Shown: piece after piece, positions 38,889-51,548 of the stretch
Numbering within the stretch: position 1 is the stretch's first letter
How the letters are laid out: each line of letters opens with the position of its first letter
Source: Laspinema palackyanum D2c
GTDB taxonomy: Bacteria > Cyanobacteriota > Cyanobacteriia > Cyanobacteriales > Laspinemataceae
Reading direction: 5' to 3'
Assembly (NCBI RefSeq): GCF_025370875.1
Contig: NZ_JAMXFD010000004.1
Location: 196,777-260,776 of the forward strand
Length of the DNA: 64,000 bases
Translations under genes and position numbers: made by a program
Notes under the pieces: model-generated
The model's database searches: none
Told to the model about the DNA's origin: nothing
What the model saw: the letters and a program-made list of their open reading frames with translations, nothing else

Positions 38889-41102
38889 TCAACCGCGATT
38901 CCCCGGCAGAAATTGCATCAATTCCAATTGATTCCCCGCTTCTACGGTATCCACCGCAGCAAACCATTCTCGACGGAGGCGATCGCGACTGCCTAGACGG
39001 TCAAATTCATCTTGCCACACCTCGGACCGAACTTGTTCTAAAAAGATTTGCCACTCGGTTTTCACCCCTTCCACGCGCAATACGCGATCCACAAATTCCT
39101 CAACGATCGCAAACGCTGCCTGATTCGGTTCAACTAACAAATCTTCCAGGGCGGTTTCACAATTATAAACGGCTTCGGCATGAAGGGTTTTTAGGTTTCC
39201 TAAAACTTCAGATGCCGAAACCCCTTGATTCGATAATTTCAATCCCGTCTTATCTGGATTTAATCCATCCAACTGCTGACGAATCCGATGTTGAATCAGT
39301 CCCCGATAGGATAAATTAAATTCATCTAAAATTCTAAACCCTAGTTTGAGTTTCTGTAAATCTTCCGGTAATAGTTCCGCCATTACGCCTAAAAATTCAC
39401 TTCCCCGAACTGGGGTGAGGTTTCCTAATCGTCCCTGTTCTATCAGAACATCCGCGACTCGGGACTTGACTCGCTCGATCGCCTGCTTCAATCCATCATC
39501 TAAGGTCAAAAAATGTTGGGATAAATGGGCGCGAATTTCGTTCAAATATTGATAGTAAGCATTGGGATATCCTCCCACGCGATCGCGTCGTGTTTCTATC
39601 TCTTCTAAAGTGGGAATTCCCGGGTCCTGGCGACAATTTGTAATGGCAATTTGGACTTGCTTTTTAAACTCCAAATCTTCTGCTTCTCGCTGGTGAAACA
39701 GACCCCGCAAAAATCCCTCTAACCCACTGGTTAAGTTATTCCAGAGGGCATCAAATAACCGCAGAAATAGGGGAAATTCGCTCTCTCGTTGGGCCGCTTG
39801 GCCCATGACTTGCCTTGCCTTGACCAGTTCGGCAGCGAGGCGATCTCGCAGGTGCAAGAGTCGGTCTTGACAAGCTGCCGCATACTGTCGGTCCAGTTCG
39901 GTAATTTTAGCCATCAAATACTCCAAAACTCCCTCTAAAATCTGCTCATTCACCGCCACAGAATCAGCGCAATTCACCGTTAGGGTTTTGACCACTTCCA
40001 GATGTTTTTCCGCCATTGTTTCGGCTAAATCTTGGCAATTTTTGCCATTATCTCCATTGCCAGAACCGGCACTGGTTTGGTTGAGAATCATCATCGACCA
40101 AAGGGCGATCGGCAGTTCGGTTAAGGCTGCCGCAGCAGTGTCGTACAACTTGACATCAACATCGGCCCAATAATCCCCCGAGGACTTAGGCATTCTCACA
40201 AATAGAACAAAATCCACCTCATGACCGAGGGTTTCAATCAGTCTCACTTCATCGCCAATGCCGGTATCCCCCAATCCGGGCATATCCACTAAGGCAATGG
40301 TTCCCACATCCCCATTGGGGAAGGTGCAGACAATTTTTACTTGACGCACAGCCAGATAGTTGAAAAAGACGCGCTGACCATCGGGGGTATCTTGTGCGAC
40401 ATATTCGCGAATTTCCCCTTGAGAAATTCGCCGTGGGGAGGGCTGCTGGAGGAGAGTCCGATACTGGTCCAGGTGGGTGTGATAGCGCCGGAGATGTTCG
40501 TGTTTTGCCCCGGTTTGTGCGCCGTAGAGGTCGCGAGGCAGGGGCGGAAGAGACTGTCTTGCAAAGTCATCCAGGGACTGGGGGGCGGGTCCTAGCTGGA
40601 GTTGGTCGTAATAGGGCGCGATCGCCTCGTCTAAAAACGATCGCTCACTATGAAAGAACACTTCCCCGTGAGTTTCCAGGGTGGGATTGTGGTAGATGGT
40701 ACTGAGGACGCCGGTACAATGTTGGCGATCGCCGTCGGGAATTTCCGAGGCAGTCAGTCCCGTTAAACTTTGTAACAGGCGACTTTTCCCTTGTCTAGCG
40801 CGTCCGACAACGCCTATATTCAGGGTATCCCGGGAAAACCGCGCTTTCAGTTTCGCCGTTGCCTCTAATTCTCTGGCAATTTCCACCTGAATTTTCCAAA
40901 AATCCACGTCTTGGAGATGTCCAACGATCGCCAGATCCTCCACGGAATCCAAAAGGCGATCGCGGTGGTCCTGTAAGGTCCGAAGGGCCTGTGCGAGGGA
41001 CCTCAAATTGTCCTCAACCCGACTAATTTTTTCGGCTAAAGGGCGACGTTTTTCGACAATCTGAGCAATTTGTGCGGTTCTGTGATTATTCATTATGGGC
41101 AA
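38889..41102 (-). CDS. Bacterial dynamin-like protein (BDLP-type large GTPase).
   Basis: 737 aa. G1 NIGVVGRARQGKSRLLQSLTG, G3 LVDMPGLGDTG. Long helical stalk/paddle region. Size and order match BDLPs. Confidence 0.8.
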   Translation of the reverse strand: MPIMNNHRTAQIAQIVEKRRPLAEKISRVEDNLRSLAQALRTLQDHRDRLLDSVEDLAIVGHLQDVDFWKIQVEIARELEATAKLKARFSRDTLNIGVVGRARQGKSRLLQSLTGLTASEIPDGDRQHCTGVLSTIYHNPTLETHGEVFFHSERSFLDEAIAPYYDQLQLGPAPQSLDDFARQSLPPLPRDLYGAQTGAKHEHLRRYHTHLDQYRTLLQQPSPRRISQGEIREYVAQDTPDGQRVFFNYLAVRQVKIVCTFPNGDVGTIALVDMPGLGDTGIGDEVRLIETLGHEVDFVLFVRMPKSSGDYWADVDVKLYDTAAAALTELPIALWSMMILNQTSAGSGNGDNGKNCQDLAETMAEKHLEVVKTLTVNCADSVAVNEQILEGVLEYLMAKITELDRQYAAACQDRLLHLRDRLAAELVKARQVMGQAAQRESEFPLFLRLFDALWNNLTSGLEGFLRGLFHQREAEDLEFKKQVQIAITNCRQDPGIPTLEEIETRRDRVGGYPNAYYQYLNEIRAHLSQHFLTLDDGLKQAIERVKSRVADVLIEQGRLGNLTPVRGSEFLGVMAELLPEDLQKLKLGFRILDEFNLSYRGLIQHRIRQQLDGLNPDKTGLKLSNQGVSASEVLGNLKTLHAEAVYNCETALEDLLVEPNQAAFAIVEEFVDRVLRVEGVKTEWQIFLEQVRSEVWQDEFDRLGSRDRLRREWFAAVDTVEAGNQLELMQFLPGNRG

Positions 41103-43215: not shown

Positions 43216-44442
43216 CTAGGGATCAACCCATCGCCCATCGGCTTGAATCAACTTAATTAACTCATCAACCCCTTGAGATTCCGGGACCTTTTTAATTTCA
43301 TCCCGACCTCGATAGAGGGAAATATATCCCGGTTGCTTACCCACATAACCATAATCGGCATCGGCCATTTCTCCGGGTCCATTAACAATGCAACCCATTA
43401 CAGCAATATCCAGTCCCGTCAGGTGTTTAGTTGCTTCGCGGACCTGATGGAGGACCTCTTCTAAATTAAAGAGGGTGCGACCACAAGAGGGACAGGCCAC
43501 ATATTCCACCATCGTCTTTCGCAGACCCAGGGCTTGTAAGATACTGTAACAGACCGGAATTTCTTTTTCTGGCGCTTCCGTCAGGGACACGCGAATGGTG
43601 TCGCCAATCCCTTCGGCGAGTAAGGTGCCGATGCCAGCGGTGGATTTAATCCGACCATATTCTCCATCTCCAGCTTCGGTGACCCCGAGGTGCAGGGGAT
43701 AGTCCATTCCCAACTGATCCATGCGCTGCACCATCAGGCGATAGGCGGCCAGCATCACCGGAACGCGGGATGCTTTCATAGAAATGACCAGGTTGCGGAA
43801 GTCTAACGATTCACAAATTCTGATAAATTCGAGGGCGGATTCTACCATCCCCTCGGGCGTATCCCCATAACTAAACAGCATCCGTTCAGCGAGGGACCCG
43901 TGATTGACCCCAATTCGCATGGATTTACCTTGGTCGCGTAGAGAAATGACCAAGGGTTCTAGGGTTTCCCGGATTTTTTCCCCAATTTCTGCAAATTCGG
44001 TCGGGGTGTATTCGGTGCGGTTAGGGTTGGGTTTTTCAAAGACGTAGAGTCCGGGATTGATTCTGACCTTATCGACGTGCTTGGCGACTTCTAGGGCAAT
44101 TTTCATGCCGTTGTGATGGACATCGGCGACGAGGGGGACGAGTTGATAAGTTCGCGCCAGTCTTTGCTTAATTTCCGCCAAGGCTTTGGCATGGGCCATA
44201 CTGGGGACGGTGACGCGGACAATTTCGCAGCCGATTTCATGGAGACGACGAATTCCGGCCACGGACCCCTCGATATCTAAGGTGTCTTCGTTAATCATGG
44301 ACTGGACCACCACCGGATTACCGCCTCCGATGGTGATGTTACCCACGGGAACCGGGCGGGTTTTGCGACGGTGGATGGTGGTGTCCGTCAGGGCGGTATT
44401 GGGAGTCGGTTGGGGGGTGGTTGGGTTCGGGAGTGTTTGCAT
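43216..44442 (-). CDS. ispG: 4-hydroxy-3-methylbut-2-enyl diphosphate synthase (IspG/GcpE).
   Basis: [21 protein letters not shown] ... RVTVP ... C-terminal 4Fe-4S cysteines CPSCGRT...GC. The ORF track starts 31 codons upstream in a non-conserved leader, so the start is placed at MQTLPNP (44442). Confidence 0.88.
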
Positions 44443-45197
44443 ACTGGCGATCGCAATCCGATAGTTGCTGTGCAGGGTGGTTGATTGGGTTAAAACCCGG
44501 GCGATCGCATTCAGGCTTCTAGGTTTGGGGCTCATACCCCTTCTCGATCAGCCAATGGACGCACCGGGGTCTTCTAGTCTGGGTTATGTTTTTCAGGTTG
44601 CCATAAATTGGGTCAATTTGGCGGAAAATCCTGAGAGAAAACTTCCCTCGGTTCCCTCAATCTCTCGTCACCCACAGACTGATGCATTCTCCCCTCCCGT
44701 CACGCGCCCTCGTTTTACCCCACCTCCGAGAGATTTTTGGATGGGGTTGATGACAGGGGACGAGAAACCGATAAGATAGGAAGATATTTTCGCCGATGGC
44801 AAGTCCGATGGCTTGCGATCGCGCCACGCTAAGTTCTCAAAGGGTGCGATTCTTGCTGTAAAAAACCTTTGTTGTTCAACGGATTGCTTGCATGGAAATC
44901 AATCGATGTGTTGTTAGTGCCAGAGCTGTTTATCCTGAATGCAAGTGCTTCAAAATGCCAGGAGCGCTCGAACGAAGGCCCCTATTCAACCCATTGCAGG
45001 GGTCGTAACCCCCCGAGGCGATCGCAGCGGTGATTTGATTTTCTCTGTCCCCTATCAGATTTTCTCAACCCGCGAAAGGGTGCCACCCGTCTAAATCATC
45101 ATCCTAAACCTCGCGATCGCACCCAAAAACTCCATAACCAAGGGGCTCTCTCGCCCCGGAAAACTATTCACTCAACCGCCGCCGCAGATCTAAAGCT

Positions 45198-48100
45198 ATG
45201 CAACTGATGAACGCCATGACCGGACAGCTCATCCAAGGGCGCTATCAACTCATCAAAGACCTCAAGCGAGGTGCTTTTGGTAAACTCTATCTGGCTGAAG
45301 ACCGACAACAGCCGGACCAACCGCGCCCCTGTGTCATTAAACAACTCCAGCCGAATCTTTCCAATCCCACCCTGGTTGAAGAAGCCCGTGGGCGCTTGCA
45401 ACGAGAAATCGAAGTCATGCAAAAATTAAGCGCTCATCCCCTGATTCCGGGAATTTTGGATGGGTTTGAGGAGGAGCAAAAATTTTATATTGTTGAAGAA
45501 TTTATCCCAGGTCAAGACCTCAGTCAAGAAATTATCCGAGGCAACCGCTGGAGTGAAGGCTTGGTGATGGCACTATTGCATCAAGTCCTGGAAGTGTTAG
45601 CGTTCATTCATCAGCACTCGGTGATTCATCGCAATATTAAACCCTCTAATTTAATCCGACGGACTGGCGATCGCAAAATTATCCCGGTGGATTTTGGAGC
45701 GCTTAAAGAAATCGAAACTTTAGCTATCAATCCTCAAGGTCAAATTGGCACAGCGGCGATCGGCACTCCAGGTTATGTCCCCATCGAACAACTCGGGGGC
45801 AAACCTCGCTTTAATAGCGATATTTATGCCCTCGGTATGACCGCGATTCAAGCCTTAACCGGCGTCCCCCCCCGGGAGTTAGAACGGGACCCCAAAACGG
45901 GTCAAACGATCTGGCACCATTTGGCCCCGGTGAACCCGAAGTTGGCTCAGATTCTGGATAAAATGGTGCGTTCAGACTATCAAGACCGCTACCAACAGGC
46001 GACGGAGGTCATCGCTGATTTACGGTCTTTACATGAAATTGGCAATCTCCTCGATGGTCGCTATCAACTGGTGAGTTTGTTAGCCGAACGCCGCTTTAGT
46101 AAAACCTTTTTAGGGGAGGATTTACAACGCCAGGAAATGCCCTGGTGTACGGTAGAGCAAATTAAACCGGCTCAACAAGAGACCTTTCCCTGGTGGGAAG
46201 CGAAAAGCTTTTTTGATGCGGAAGCGCAATTGTTACACCGTTTAGGCACTCATGACCGCATCCCCACGTTGCTGGCAGATTTTGAGCAAAATGGGGCATT
46301 TTATTTGGTCCAGGAGCAGATTGAGGGACAGTCCCTTTCTCATGAATTGCTCCAGGGCAAAAAGTACGAGGAAAAAGAGGCAGTCGCTTTATTACAAGAG
46401 GTCCTAGAAACTCTCGCCTTCGTTCATGAACATCATGCCATTCATTTGGATTTAACCCCCTGGAGTATCTTCCGGCGTCAGTCCGACGGTAAGGTGATGC
46501 TGACCAATTTTGGCGCGGTGAAGCAAATTGGCACCTTGACGATTGACCAGGGCCAGCTCACGACTTCGACGGCGATCGGCACTCCGGGCTATATGCCGAA
46601 GGAACAAATGGTGGGCAATCCCCGCCCGAATAGTGATATCTATGCTCTGGGAGCAGTGGCCCTGCAAGCGTTAACCGGGGTGCGTCCGGATTATCTGGGG
46701 ACGGAACCCCATACGGGCGAGCTCAGTTGGCGCAAGCACGTTCAGGTGAGCGATCGCTTTGGGGCAATTCTGGATAAAATGGTGCGCTCTTATTTCCGCG
46801 AGCGCTATGAATCGGCTCAGGAGGTGTTAGCGGATCTGCGCGCCCTCCAAGAGCCGGTCATTGCCCCCTTGGAGGAGTCGGTCCCGGTGCCGATGGGGGC
46901 GGAGGGTTTTGTCTCTCCCCAGGTCCCCCCAGAACAGCCCCAGGCAGACCTAGGGGCGAGTCCCCCAGTTGCGAATAAAGCGAAGGCTCCCATCGGCGCT
47001 GCCGCTGTAGCCGGGGTGACCCAAGTTTCCAAAAAGTTACCCTTTGCCAAACCCTGGCCGATTCTGGCAGCGGTGGCCCTGATGGGAACGGCAGGGGTGG
47101 CGATCGCCCTGAGCAATTCTCAGCAAACGCGCCAAGCGCGTCAAGACTCGGACCAATTTATCGAAAATGCCAGCCTGCTTTTGGAGTCTCAGGAGTACCT
47201 GGAAGCCCTGGATGAGTGCGATCAGGCGATCGGGATTACGGCGGATTATGCCTTGGCTTGGAAATGTCGTGGGGATGCGCTTTATCTGCTTGATCGCTAT
47301 GACTCGGCTCTCGTGGCTTATGACAATGCCAGTCGTTTAGAACCGAAAAATGCCCGGTATTGGAACAATCGTGGGGAAACTTTGTATCAATTACAGCGCT
47401 ACGAGGAGGCGATCGCAGCTCATGATCGCGCTTTAGAACTTCGTCGCAATGATGTGAATGCCCTGAAGGGTCGGGGTCTGGCTTTACTCAGTTTACATCG
47501 CTACGATGAGGCTCTAGGAGCCCTGGACCAAGCCCTAGAAGAGGAGCCGAATGACCCGCAAGGCTGGGAACGCAAGGCGTTAGTTTTAGACTATTTGCAA
47601 CGTCCCCAGGAGGCCGATCGCGCTTTTGAACGCTCTCTGGCTGCTTACGATAGCCAGTTGGCAAGCAACCCGGATGATTTGAATGCCTGGTTGGAACGGG
47701 GTCGATTACTCAATCAGTTACAGCGTCTGGATGAGGCGATCGCTTCGTTTGATCGCGCTTTGGAGATTAATCCGGAGTTTTATCTCGCCTGGAATGCCAA
47801 GGGAACGACGCTGTATAGTGCGTCTCAATTTACGGAGGCGTTAGCGGCTTACGATCAGGCTCTGGCGATCGAACCGGATTTTTATAAAGGCTGGCATAAT
47901 CGCGGCGTCTTGCTGAGTCTGGGGTTGGGTCGTCACTTTGAGGCGATCGAGGCGTTTGATCGCGCTTTGGCGATTGAGGAGAGTTTTCATCTAGGTTGGC
48001 GCGATCGCGGTTTGGCACAAATGGAACTACGCCGTTATGAAGAGGCAGTGACCTCGTTTGATCAAGCGGTTAAGATTGAGCCAAGGGATGGCAGATCCTG

Positions 48101-48344
48101 GGCGAATCGGGGGATCGCACTCAATGAACTCCGGCGTTATACTGATGCGATCGAATCGTTTGATCAGGCGATCGCCGCTCAAACCCAAGATGCCTTAGTC
48201 TGGACTCAACGGGGAATCGCCCTGGAGTCCATTGAACGGTACGATGAGGCTCTAGTTTCCTACGAAAAAGCCCTAGAAATTCAACCGGATTTCTCTCTGG
48301 CAGAGGAGTCCCGGGACTGGGTTTTAGTCAAGATGGGCCGCTAG
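45198..48344 (+). CDS. Receptor-like protein: two tandem degenerate Ser/Thr protein-kinase-like domains, one TM helix, and 12 or more TPR repeats.
   Basis: Domain 1: GAFGKLY, VIKQL, HRNIKPSNL (Asn at the catalytic Asp position), DFG, GTPGYVPIE. Domain 2: HLDLTPWSIF, NFG (DFG to NFG), GTPGYMPKE. TM helix PILAAVALMGTAGVAIAL. TPR consensus AWxxRGxAL repeated. Confidence 0.8.
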   Translation: MQLMNAMTGQLIQGRYQLIKDLKRGAFGKLYLAEDRQQPDQPRPCVIKQLQPNLSNPTLVEEARGRLQREIEVMQKLSAHPLIPGILDGFEEEQKFYIVEEFIPGQDLSQEIIRGNRWSEGLVMALLHQVLEVLAFIHQHSVIHRNIKPSNLIRRTGDRKIIPVDFGALKEIETLAINPQGQIGTAAIGTPGYVPIEQLGGKPRFNSDIYALGMTAIQALTGVPPRELERDPKTGQTIWHHLAPVNPKLAQILDKMVRSDYQDRYQQATEVIADLRSLHEIGNLLDGRYQLVSLLAERRFSKTFLGEDLQRQEMPWCTVEQIKPAQQETFPWWEAKSFFDAEAQLLHRLGTHDRIPTLLADFEQNGAFYLVQEQIEGQSLSHELLQGKKYEEKEAVALLQEVLETLAFVHEHHAIHLDLTPWSIFRRQSDGKVMLTNFGAVKQIGTLTIDQGQLTTSTAIGTPGYMPKEQMVGNPRPNSDIYALGAVALQALTGVRPDYLGTEPHTGELSWRKHVQVSDRFGAILDKMVRSYFRERYESAQEVLADLRALQEPVIAPLEESVPVPMGAEGFVSPQVPPEQPQADLGASPPVANKAKAPIGAAAVAGVTQVSKKLPFAKPWPILAAVALMGTAGVAIALSNSQQTRQARQDSDQFIENASLLLESQEYLEALDECDQAIGITADYALAWKCRGDALYLLDRYDSALVAYDNASRLEPKNARYWNNRGETLYQLQRYEEAIAAHDRALELRRNDVNALKGRGLALLSLHRYDEALGALDQALEEEPNDPQGWERKALVLDYLQRPQEADRAFERSLAAYDSQLASNPDDLNAWLERGRLLNQLQRLDEAIASFDRALEINPEFYLAWNAKGTTLYSASQFTEALAAYDQALAIEPDFYKGWHNRGVLLSLGLGRHFEAIEAFDRALAIEESFHLGWRDRGLAQMELRRYEEAVTSFDQAVKIEPRDGRSWANRGIALNELRRYTDAIESFDQAIAAQTQDALVWTQRGIALESIERYDEALVSYEKALEIQPDFSLAEESRDWVLVKMGR

Positions 48345-48411: not shown

Positions 48412-48600
48412 TTATAACGGTTGGCACTTTCCGGCGCGAATCAAACCCACACGGCGGGCGATCGCCTCCTCTCGGGACTCAAAGGGTCCCCAGTTCTCCC
48501 CGAGTTCCGGCGGGTCCGTCCCTTCCAGGCTGCTGCTGGGGAGAATTTCACAAGTTCCGTTTTTGCCCTTGACAATATAGTATTTGGAGGGTTCAGCCAT
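48412..48600 (-). CDS. Hypothetical small protein (62 aa) downstream of the SPFH gene.
   Basis: ORF 46 bp downstream of the SPFH gene, same strand. Plausible conserved small protein (YYIVKGKNGTCEI) but no assignable family. Confidence 0.4.
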   Translation of the reverse strand: MAEPSKYYIVKGKNGTCEILPSSSLEGTDPPELGENWGPFESREEAIARRVGLIRAGKCQPL

Positions 48601-50234: not shown

Positions 50235-51548
50235 ATGCTAGAAATCAACGCTCCTAACTTATATTTATTTAGTTACCATCTCAAAGAAGGGTTAGGCATC
50301 AGCCTAGAAAGCAGTCAACGGAATTATCACTCAGTTTTAGAAAAAATAGTGGGGGATATTTCTCGATTAATCCCCGATGCGATCGCCCCGGATTGTCAGG
50401 AAACTTTCCTCGCTCTCCAGTCCCAACCCACCGCCGATTTAAAATTTAAAGGAACCCTCCATAACCACACCATCCTCGGACGCTATCTGCGGCGTAGTCT
50501 CCATCAGACTTATGCCTTAATCTTTGATGGTTCAGTTCAGGAAAGATATAACGCCCATCAAATTCAGAGTCTGCTGAGTACCCTCAAACCCCTAACCCCT
50601 AACCCCTATTCCCCCGATAATTTAGGACAAACTTGGCTAATTTCAGGAGTTTGGGAACATGGCAATTCCACTCAAATCGAAAAACTGGCCGAAGAGAGCT
50701 ATAAAACCTTAATCTCTCCGGAAGGATGGCATCATCGCGCAACAGGAGACTATGTGGGGGTGAAACTGCATGAGTTTTGGCGGACATCTCGGGGAAACAC
50801 TGGGGCGACAATTGAAGGCAATAGTTATTTACTCCTGCTTCTGTATCCCGATCGCGAAATGTTTCAAGCGGGATGGGGATTTTATGAACAATGGCAACAA
50901 GTTTTATTATCTCGCCATCAAATTGTTTGGGCCCACTGCCAGAGTCAACAGCTCAAACAACAGCTAATCGACAAATATCACCAGATTGAGGCGATCGCTG
51001 ATTATTCTGAGCTAAGTCTCTATCACCTCAAAACCACGAGGGATGCTCTCTGCGGATTGCTCACCGGATTCACGACGTTAGAGAGCTATTTCAATTGGAT
51101 GGAAATCTATATCGACCATTATGATCAATATTGCCATCAGTTAGAACAAGATGCTGATGGTTTAGGGTTAACAGACCTCACGTTTTTAAAACAATTCAGC
51201 ACCTCCGTCAAACAAACTTACCTCCCTCGACTGCAAGGGGATATCAATGCATTCCGCTTAAATTTGGAACGGATACAACATCTAACCCAGATGATTCAGG
51301 GTCAGGTGGAAATTCGTCAGGCCCAGCGCGATCGCACCGTTAAAACCGCAGTGGCGATCGGGGGAGTCGGTGTGGCGACAGGTTGTATAGTAGCCGTCGC
51401 TTCTTCGATGAATCCTCCTGTTTCCTCCGTGAATCCGGGGACAAATTCAGGCTTGACTGGGCTCTTATTGTTAAGTGTAATTTGCGGAGGGGTCGCCAGT
51501 TTAGTCACTTTTGTAGCCCTCTCCCTCTGGCAAAAACTCGGGAAGTGA
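50235..51548 (+). CDS. Hypothetical protein with two C-terminal TM helices.
   Basis: 437 aa, no recognisable domain. C-terminal TM segments AVAIGGVGVATGCIVAVASS and LTGLLLLSVICGGVASLVTFVALSLW. Confidence 0.5.
   Translation: MLEINAPNLYLFSYHLKEGLGISLESSQRNYHSVLEKIVGDISRLIPDAIAPDCQETFLALQSQPTADLKFKGTLHNHTILGRYLRRSLHQTYALIFDGSVQERYNAHQIQSLLSTLKPLTPNPYSPDNLGQTWLISGVWEHGNSTQIEKLAEESYKTLISPEGWHHRATGDYVGVKLHEFWRTSRGNTGATIEGNSYLLLLLYPDREMFQAGWGFYEQWQQVLLSRHQIVWAHCQSQQLKQQLIDKYHQIEAIADYSELSLYHLKTTRDALCGLLTGFTTLESYFNWMEIYIDHYDQYCHQLEQDADGLGLTDLTFLKQFSTSVKQTYLPRLQGDINAFRLNLERIQHLTQMIQGQVEIRQAQRDRTVKTAVAIGGVGVATGCIVAVASSMNPPVSSVNPGTNSGLTGLLLLSVICGGVASLVTFVALSLWQKLGK

Follow-up and report, generated by a model that had tools for sequence, protein, structure and literature searches.

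In a stretch of 64,000 nucleotides from the cyanobacterium Laspinema palackyanum D2c (the window), one gene on the forward strand (45198..48344) encodes a protein of 1048 amino acids that comprises, from the N- to the C-terminus, two Hanks-type kinase domains (D1 and D2), a disordered linker, one transmembrane (TM) helix and 12 tetratricopeptide repeats (TPRs). Neither of the two kinase domains possesses an intact catalytic triad, i.e. the β3 (VAIK) Lys, the HRD Asp and the DFG Asp: the corresponding residues are K48, N146 and D165 in D1 and E320, D418 and N437 in D2. By the sequence definition of a pseudokinase, a kinase fold that lacks at least one of these three residues, both D1 and D2 thus qualify. 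Our preferred reading, to which we assign a probability of roughly 0.6, is that the protein is a double pseudokinase that would function as a non-catalytic transmembrane scaffold or allosteric receptor; most likely it is at most barely catalytic. It represents a deep, selected pseudokinase-pseudokinase clade within an apparently uncharacterised cyanobacterial family of tandem Hanks-kinase receptors, and the gene should not be annotated as an active "serine/threonine protein kinase". An earlier interpretation made from the letters alone (the sequence-only reading) had offered a double pseudokinase or two complementary half-sites. At the sequence level the former is upheld, as both domains fail the triad and this state is ancient and fixed.

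The features of the gene and the data on which they rest are as follows (ω, ratio of non-synonymous to synonymous substitution rates, dN/dS; pLDDT, predicted local distance difference test score; AF2, AlphaFold2):

45198..48344, + strand: whole gene for the tandem pseudokinase/TM/TPR protein, 1048 aa (open reading frame (ORF) with ATG start; two Pkinase matches and TPRs in Pfam; full-length orthologs)
45225..46034, + strand: kinase-like D1 (aa ~10-279) with Gly loop KRGAFG, K48, E70, HRN146, N151 and D165FG (Pfam, alignments; AF2 pLDDT >90; ω 0.03-0.12)
45633..45635, + strand: Asn146 codon AAT, replacing the catalytic HRD Asp of D1 (codon comparison with orthologs)
46044..46853, + strand: kinase-like D2 (aa ~283-552) with AERRFS, Glu320, HLD418LTPWS and NFG437 (Pfam, alignments; AF2 pLDDT >90; ω 0.03-0.11)
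46155..46157, + strand: Glu320 codon GAG at the β3 (VAIK) Lys position of D2 (D1/D2 and family alignments)
46443..46466, + strand: D2 catalytic loop HLDLTPWS, Asp retained, Lys replaced by Thr and Asn by Ser (alignments)
46506..46514, + strand: NFG replacing DFG in D2 (alignments)
46857..47051, + strand: Pro/Ala-rich disordered linker, aa 554-618 (pLDDT <50 for aa 557-618 in the full-length model; ω 0.33-0.8)
47052..47120, + strand: single predicted TM helix, aa ~619-641 (hydrophobic 19-mer, Kyte-Doolittle 1.98; modelled helix from aa 620; positive-inside pattern)
47148..48341, + strand: 12 TPRs (aa 651-1032) and C-terminal capping helix (Pfam TPR_1, 2e-64; repeat register; all-helical model; ω 0.13-0.19)

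The protein belongs to the Hanks-type superfamily (PF00069). Pfam finds two Pkinase stretches in the ORF (182.8 bits, with a cut-off of 31.7) together with many TPR families, and phmmer links the protein to CaMKI, StkP and PknB with E-values from 1e-21 to 1e-12. An AF2 model of aa 1-581 (pLDDT 91.8, predicted TM-score (pTM) 0.81) contains two confidently predicted kinase folds. The best matches of a Foldseek search against the PDB are Stk1, PknB, PknI and PknA; TM-scores to target of 0.75-0.81 for Stk1, PknB and PknI are in keeping with the bilobal kinase fold; only single-domain kinases were retrieved, with no solved tandem arrangement among the matches. D1 and D2 follow each other without a linker, align to each other with 45% identity (E = 4e-83) and both contain Thr/Ser residues in the activation loop, among them T174 and T185 in D1 and T455-T458 in D2.

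To assign the catalytic positions, each half was aligned to solved kinases (including CaMKI), D1 was aligned to D2, and both were aligned to 120 homologs. D1 contains KRGAFG (with Lys at the first Gly of GxGxxG), VIK48, the αC residue E70, the catalytic loop H144-R-N146-I-K148-P-S-N151, D165-F-G and GTPGYVPIE. The alignments thereby agree with the sequence-only reading, which had described D1 as a domain that keeps the Gly loop, Lys, DFG and GTPGY-PIE and has HRN for HRD. It had also placed the Asn codon at about 45632, and AAT, not GAT, is indeed found at 45633-45635; this codon is a single G to A transition away from GAT for Asp. As judged from its motifs, D1 is a near-complete ATP site that misses just the catalytic base.

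The situation in D2 differs. Its motifs are AERRFS in place of a Gly loop, CTVE320, the αC residue E342, H416-L-D418-L-T-P-W-S, N437-F-G and GTPGYMPKE. While the alignments confirm the missing Gly loop, the retained HxD, NFG and PKE, which had all been recorded before, that list was incomplete, since the replacements of the β3 Lys by Glu, of the catalytic-loop Lys by Thr and of the catalytic-loop Asn by Ser had been missed. Because D2 additionally lacks these three residues, the two halves are, to judge from the alignments, not symmetric, D2 being a gutted site that is more degenerate than previously recorded. With the Gly loop, β3 Lys and DFG Asp lost, D2 probably does not bind nucleotide.

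Next to the question of which residues are missing stands the question of whether their loss is selected. An exact-sequence look-up of the 1048-aa protein returned no record, and the best match among 5.8 billion proteins is just 48-50% identical. A DNA scan of species-representative genomes yielded nine orthologs from the Laspinema group (L001-L009, 84-96% identity), which stem from Laspinema palackyanum D2a, Laspinema sp. D2d, L. olomoucense D3b, Oscillatoria sp. HE19RPO, Phormidium pseudopriestleyi FRX01 and several metagenome-assembled genomes (MAGs). The same scan provided an ortholog of 64% identity from Phormidium sp. CCY1219 (L010) and a relative of 41% identity from a Trichodesmium MAG (L013). 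The orthologs are all intact ORFs of 1046-1057 aa. HRN, CTVE, HLDLTPWS (with minor L/S/V variation), NFG and AERRFS are identical in all nine Laspinema-group orthologs, and the canonical HRD/DFG state that would mark a strain-specific lesion was not found in them. The Asn146 codon varies synonymously, as eight of the nine share AAT with the window and L008 has AAC.

The selective constraint was quantified as dN/dS according to Nei-Gojobori, with each ortholog compared to the window sequence. ω amounts to 0.03-0.12 for D1 and 0.03-0.11 for D2, with higher values in the TPR array (0.13-0.19) and the linker (0.33-0.8). Against L008, D1 (0.081) and D2 (0.057) lie close to the neighbouring genes for IspG (0.056), an S41 peptidase (0.064) and an SPFH protein (0.064). 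Both kinase folds are thus under purifying selection as strong as that on housekeeping genes. Given identical residues in nine orthologs and ω values of 0.03-0.12, the substitutions are conserved and selected and not specific to one strain.

Synteny at the locus extends over the whole Laspinema group, in the order S41 peptidase, ispG, pseudokinase gene, 62-aa ORF, SPFH gene, a 437-aa unknown and Uma2. HIP1 sites (GCGATCGC) number 90 in the window compared to 0.84 expected by chance, and seven of them lie inside the gene. The native origin that had been suggested on the basis of HIP1 density is thereby borne out, by the density itself as well as by synteny, and the gene is native and core in the Laspinema lineage. 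Scans for Rfam families, promoters and terminators gave nothing informative.

The protein is part of a large cyanobacterial family with the order kinase, kinase, TM, TPR. Its members are found in Oscillatoriales, Nostocales, Pleurocapsales and Chroococcales, and 102 of the 118 long ones have a TM segment after D2. Scoring the triad in both domains of 118 homologs (D1-D2) gave 53 kinase-kinase, 64 kinase-pseudokinase and one pseudokinase-kinase protein (P0025), and no pseudokinase-pseudokinase protein. The D1 triad, including the Asp, is hence intact in 117 of the 118. The degenerate D2 of the wider family usually shows HGN and NFG and lacks the Gly loop, e.g. in P0033, P0078 and P0101 (Pleurocapsales group), a form that recalls the JAK homology 2 (JH2) domain of JAKs. 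In five relatives (P0023, P0047, P0049, P0050 and P0052) a GUN4 domain (PF05419) replaces the TPR array; the tandem kinase module is thus combined with different C-terminal sensor domains.

D1 and D2 of the window protein are each closest to the domain in the same position of L010, P0003 and L013, and not to each other. Since the domains group by position, the duplication predates the divergence of this subfamily. A metagenome scan added four further full-length relatives of about 1060-1075 aa: L017 (55% identity; HRD in D1, HCD in D2), L018 (47% identity; HRN in D1, HSNIHPAN in D2), L019 (50% identity; HRD in D1, HLD in D2) and L020 (43% identity; HGD in D1, HLD in D2). When the kinase region (539 columns) was used to build a neighbour-joining tree with 100 bootstraps, the subfamily was supported at 100% and split into two clades, each with 100% bootstrap support. 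The first, in which D1 carries HRN, is {L018, (L010, Laspinema group)} and holds 12 sequences with identities down to about 47%; the second, {L017, (L013, (L020, (P0003, L019)))}, retains the Asp. At codon level, position 146 is AAT in L010 and L018, as in the window, and GAT in L013 and L017 of the sister clade. With a monophyletic HRN clade next to a sister clade that keeps the Asp, the pattern fits a single, ancient loss of the D1 catalytic Asp, with Asn kept ever since. The HRN clade is the sole pseudokinase-pseudokinase lineage that we found.

Within this clade D2 takes a different form in each branch. The Laspinema branch has lost the Gly loop, carries Lys to Glu, LTPWS and NFG, and keeps D418. 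L010 keeps the Gly loop and DFG and has Lys replaced by Val along with HGN, and L018 keeps the Lys and DFG and shows HSN with the catalytic-loop Lys replaced by His. In the sister clade the Lys, Asp and DFG of D2 are all kept. Seen in the light of the tree, D2 has decayed independently in each branch of the HRN clade, as would be expected if catalysis was lost and both folds were retained. Drift of the catalytic residues in otherwise tightly constrained domains is the pattern to be expected if phosphotransfer has been abandoned and both folds have remained essential.

Fixation specific to the HRN clade is limited to seven positions, namely M7, N146, D260, P331, W333, D361 and E535. A catalytic base that has migrated elsewhere was considered and discarded, since none of these residues is acidic and near the D1 cleft. 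P331, W333 and D361 cluster in the N-lobe of D2, where they might, as a speculation, mark a changed interface.

Two of the three HRN lineages have retained, in D1, the Gly loop, K48 and E70 as a pair, N151 and DFG, and D1 therefore probably still binds Mg-nucleotide; in the third, L010, the β3 Lys of D1 is lost as well (K48A, AAA to GCC). One of the Foldseek matches, 5hu3, is a structure of CaMKII D136N with Mg-ADP and a substrate(-derived) fragment bound. We take D136 to be the catalytic-base Asp of the HRD motif, mutated to inactivate the kinase. This structure shows that a kinase with an Asp to Asn mutation can keep its nucleotide.

Behind the kinase folds, one hydrophobic segment and 12 repeats with a capping helix account for the TM helix and the "12 or more" TPRs of the sequence-only reading, and the order of kinase folds, TM helix and TPRs supports the receptor- or scaffold-like architecture that it had proposed. 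Repeats start at aa 651, 685, 719, 753, 787, 828, 862, 896, 931, 965 and 999, and a 7-residue insertion interrupts the block between aa 787 and 828. Across 113 family proteins, the flanks of the TM segment contain on average 4.58 Lys and Arg residues on the N-terminal side compared to 1.86 on the C-terminal side. Due to the single TM segment and this excess of positive charge, the kinase folds are predicted to be cytoplasmic and the TPR array to lie outside the cytoplasm, in the periplasm or the thylakoid lumen.

How could such a protein work? In the scaffold or receptor model, nucleotide bound to D1 would act as a switch of conformation or stability, in the way of HER3 and JAK JH2, and D2 would provide a rigidly attached regulatory or docking surface without nucleotide. 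A protein or peptide ligand bound to the TPR array could alter the oligomerisation or orientation of the cytoplasmic tandem module, which might then recruit or allosterically regulate an active Hanks kinase encoded elsewhere, or serve as its phospho-acceptor platform. These mechanistic details are held with less confidence than the non-catalytic reading as such. For the downstream signalling route in particular we can only infer a course, since no partner gene lies nearby.

Several points weigh against this reading. All catalytic elements of D1 except the base have been kept over a very long divergence, which would also fit residual or atypical catalysis, and HER3 and JAK2 JH2, two pseudokinases with Asn for the Asp, both show weak activity. 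No gene for a partner kinase, a phosphatase or an FHA protein was found among the neighbours, and the window holds no other Hanks kinase. The topology is a prediction, and the hydrophobic segment of L010 is weak (Kyte-Doolittle 1.43). Alternatively, D1 might, despite HRN, be a working slow or atypical Ser/Thr kinase with D2 as its regulatory pseudokinase, which would make the protein an ordinary member of its family. No state is commoner there than kinase-pseudokinase (64/118); the Gly loop, K48, E70, K148, N151, DFG and P+1 loop of D1 are kept in Laspinema as well as in L018 at about 47% identity; and the weak activity of the Asn-for-Asp pseudokinases counts in the same direction. An exchange of Asp for Asn at the catalytic base is, however, a classic kinase-dead substitution, and the family members keep the Asp with one exception in 118. 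The loss of the β3 Lys from D1 of L010 likewise speaks against a weak kinase, as do the absence of a clade-specific acidic residue near the cleft and the subfamily tree, in which the catalytic residues of D2 decay only in the clade where D1 has lost its Asp. Although activity and Mg-ATP binding have been described for JAK2 JH2 (PMC5770812), we therefore consider a catalytically competent D1 unlikely, while taking it seriously. A composite active site, in which D1 would supply ATP binding and D2 the catalytic Asp, is in our view hardly credible. In favour of such complementary half-sites, D1 lacks the Asp while D2 keeps D418, both in the window protein and in the orthologs from Laspinema, and the pTM of 0.81 suggests, at the level of the model, a fixed arrangement of D1 and D2. 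Yet D418 is replaced by Asn in both other lineages of the HRN clade (HGN in L010, HSN in L018), so that the Asp of D2 is no conserved feature by which D1 could be complemented, and the Lys and Asn of the surrounding D2 catalytic loop are lost. We are not aware of any Hanks kinase in which one domain supplies the catalytic base of another.

Two further explanations leave catalysis aside. That N146 reflects a lesion of this strain, an error of sequencing or the decay of a pseudogene is conceivable insofar as it lies one G to A transition from Asp, but nine independent assemblies share the substitutions with two relatives that are more distant, the reading frame being intact in all, and ω values of 0.03-0.12 together with the 100% bootstrap support of the HRN clade reduce the probability of such an artefact to practically nil. 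An anti-phage defence function, either as a PD-T4-6-like kinase or as a decoy sensor, was suggested by the PADLOC PD-T4-6 profile PDLC04045, which matches at 565 bits. Plant tandem kinase-pseudokinases (TKPs) are immune receptors whose pseudokinase has been proposed to act as a decoy (PMC6170490), and TPR arrays are common as sensor modules. The PD-T4-6 profiles are generic, however: the kinase domain of M. tuberculosis PknB, used as a housekeeping control, scores 594 bits, upon which the PD-T4-6 assignment was rejected, and every member of the tandem-kinase family matches these profiles. A "PD-T4-6" present in all S. thermophilus genomes consists of a Ser/Thr kinase domain and repeated kinase-associated modules (PMC11514479), which we read as a PASTA-type housekeeping kinase. 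Moreover, this is a core gene of Laspinema in a syntenic position next to ispG and the genes for the S41 peptidase and SPFH protein, and it is neither located in a defence island nor variably present; it is under strong purifying selection, and its product is predicted to lack the kinase activity that such systems would need. A defence role thus appears highly improbable. With respect to annotation in general, PADLOC PD-T4-6 profiles PDLC04039-04064 score any Hanks kinase domain very highly. Matches to them on genes of this kind should not be taken as defence systems, and in phyla rich in kinases, such as cyanobacteria, most PD-T4-6 calls are likely false positives.

In addition to the genes named above, the neighbourhood includes genes for a glyoxalase, a thioredoxin and NdhF. 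The 62-aa ORF between the pseudokinase and SPFH genes (48412-48600, - strand) has no Pfam match. It is kept at the same position in all Laspinema-group loci with 69-97% amino acid identity and, being conserved in both position and sequence, is probably a real small gene. The 437-aa protein (50235-51548, + strand), which also lacks a Pfam match, has a hydrophobic C-terminal tail, is syntenic and evolves fast (65% identity and ω of 0.25 against L008, compared to about 0.06 for its neighbours). A 737-aa ORF (38889-41102, - strand) shows a weak Dynamin_N match below the gathering score (E = 7e-4) and may encode a bacterial dynamin-like protein. In ispG (GcpE; 43216-44535, - strand), about 58 residues precede the GcpE domain when counted from the first ATG, and the ORF of the L008 ortholog is 8 aa shorter; the annotated start may lie downstream of this ATG.

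Among known systems, HER3 (ErbB3) resembles the window protein as a single-pass receptor in which Asn replaces the HRD Asp while ATP-binding elements are kept; HER3 is thought to act by allosteric pairing with an active relative. It belongs, however, to the eukaryotic tyrosine kinase family, its ectodomain is N-terminal, its αC Glu is mutated and its kinase domain is a single one, whereas the window protein has two N-terminal Hanks Ser/Thr-like domains and a C-terminal sensor, and keeps E70. The JH2-JH1 pair of the JAKs likewise places tandem kinase folds on one chain, one of them degenerate and regulatory, and JH2 carries Asn at the position of the HRD Asp. While lacking normal catalysis, JH2 binds Mg-ATP and is stabilised by ATP (PMC5770812). 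Unlike the doubly degenerate, membrane-anchored window protein, JAKs have a fully active JH1, the order pseudokinase-then-kinase and a soluble, receptor-associated form. Plant TKPs such as WTK1/Yr15 and RPG1 are tandem folds that arose by duplication or fusion and have a degenerate second domain (PMC6170490), the same pattern as in 64 of the 118 cyanobacterial family members. They differ from the window protein in having one putatively active domain, a mostly cytoplasmic location, a role in immunity and an independent origin; here, a pseudokinase-pseudokinase pair is joined to a TM helix and TPRs and stands in a housekeeping context. Judged as a kinase-pseudokinase tandem, the window protein has the two tandem folds and lacks a domain with complete catalytic apparatus. 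Since its nearest relatives in sequence and structure are Hanks kinases of bacteria, and since the tandem family itself is cyanobacterial, there is no common descent with JAKs or plant TKPs, and the resemblance is convergent.

Bacterial receptor kinases such as PknB, Stk1 and StkP share the fold as well as the arrangement of an N-terminal cytoplasmic kinase fold, one TM helix and C-terminal extracytoplasmic repeats, but combine one active kinase domain with PASTA repeats instead of two degenerate domains with a TPR array. Seven bacterial pseudokinase families have been catalogued (CP1, DYD, DLHK, GLW and ActPs1-3; bioRxiv 10.1101/2025.01.12.632604, PMC12599244), in whose Hanks folds the loss of the VAIK Lys, HRD Asp and/or DFG Asp is likewise conserved. 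CP1, a family of cyanobacteria and proteobacteria that is common in the former, has no TM segment and invariably comes with a fused COG3899 ATPase domain (PMC12599244); the window protein, having a TM helix and a TPR array and no ATPase-domain match in Pfam or NCBIfam, does not belong to it. The TPR-linked families GN-NS1, Myxo1, Strep1 and Strep2 stand outside the pseudokinase families of the kinome atlas (10.1101/2025.01.12.632604). Although TPR-linked kinases are discussed, "tandem" kinase domains are not mentioned in this atlas (10.1101/2025.01.12.632604) or in the review (PMC12599244), and a 2007 survey of cyanobacteria lists proteins with Ser/Thr kinase and TPR domains and no tandems. 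A literature search for bacterial or cyanobacterial tandem Hanks kinases or pseudokinases found none, only plant and animal work, although the family may have been described elsewhere. With its own family, whose members are annotated only as "serine/threonine protein kinase", the window protein shares the domain order, the linkerless junction, the TM helix after D2 and the TPR array, and with its nearest subfamily also the Gly loop LKRGxFGK and a similar length (about 1050-1075 aa). It differs in that 117 of 118 relatives have an intact D1 triad and none is doubly degenerate.

Pseudokinases and tandem kinase-pseudokinases are central to cytokine signalling in animals (JAKs) and to disease resistance in cereals (TKPs), while bacterial pseudokinases have barely been studied by experiment. 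Our analysis corrects the annotations "active kinase" and "defence system" and breaks no paradigm. It describes a widespread cyanobacterial receptor family that shares the tandem logic of JAKs and TKPs and offers, within one subfamily, a natural series of kinase-kinase, kinase-pseudokinase and pseudokinase-pseudokinase proteins in which the D1 Asp changed to Asn and D2 then decayed independently. With this series, the role of a kinase fold without catalysis, the nucleotide switch and the dependence of D2 on D1 activity can be addressed in a bacterium. Tentatively, and with more doubt than conviction, we further suggest that cyanobacteria have independently evolved a solution like that of JAKs and plant TKPs: TM tandem-kinase receptors in which D2 repeatedly becomes a pseudokinase, with the HRN clade as a fully non-catalytic end point whose preserved D1 nucleotide pocket would serve as a switch and which, upon ligand binding to the TPRs, would pair with an active paralogue in the manner of HER3. 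If true, no tandem pseudokinase receptor would have been known from bacteria before, and the evolution and signalling of kinase-pseudokinase tandems could be studied here in a simple system.

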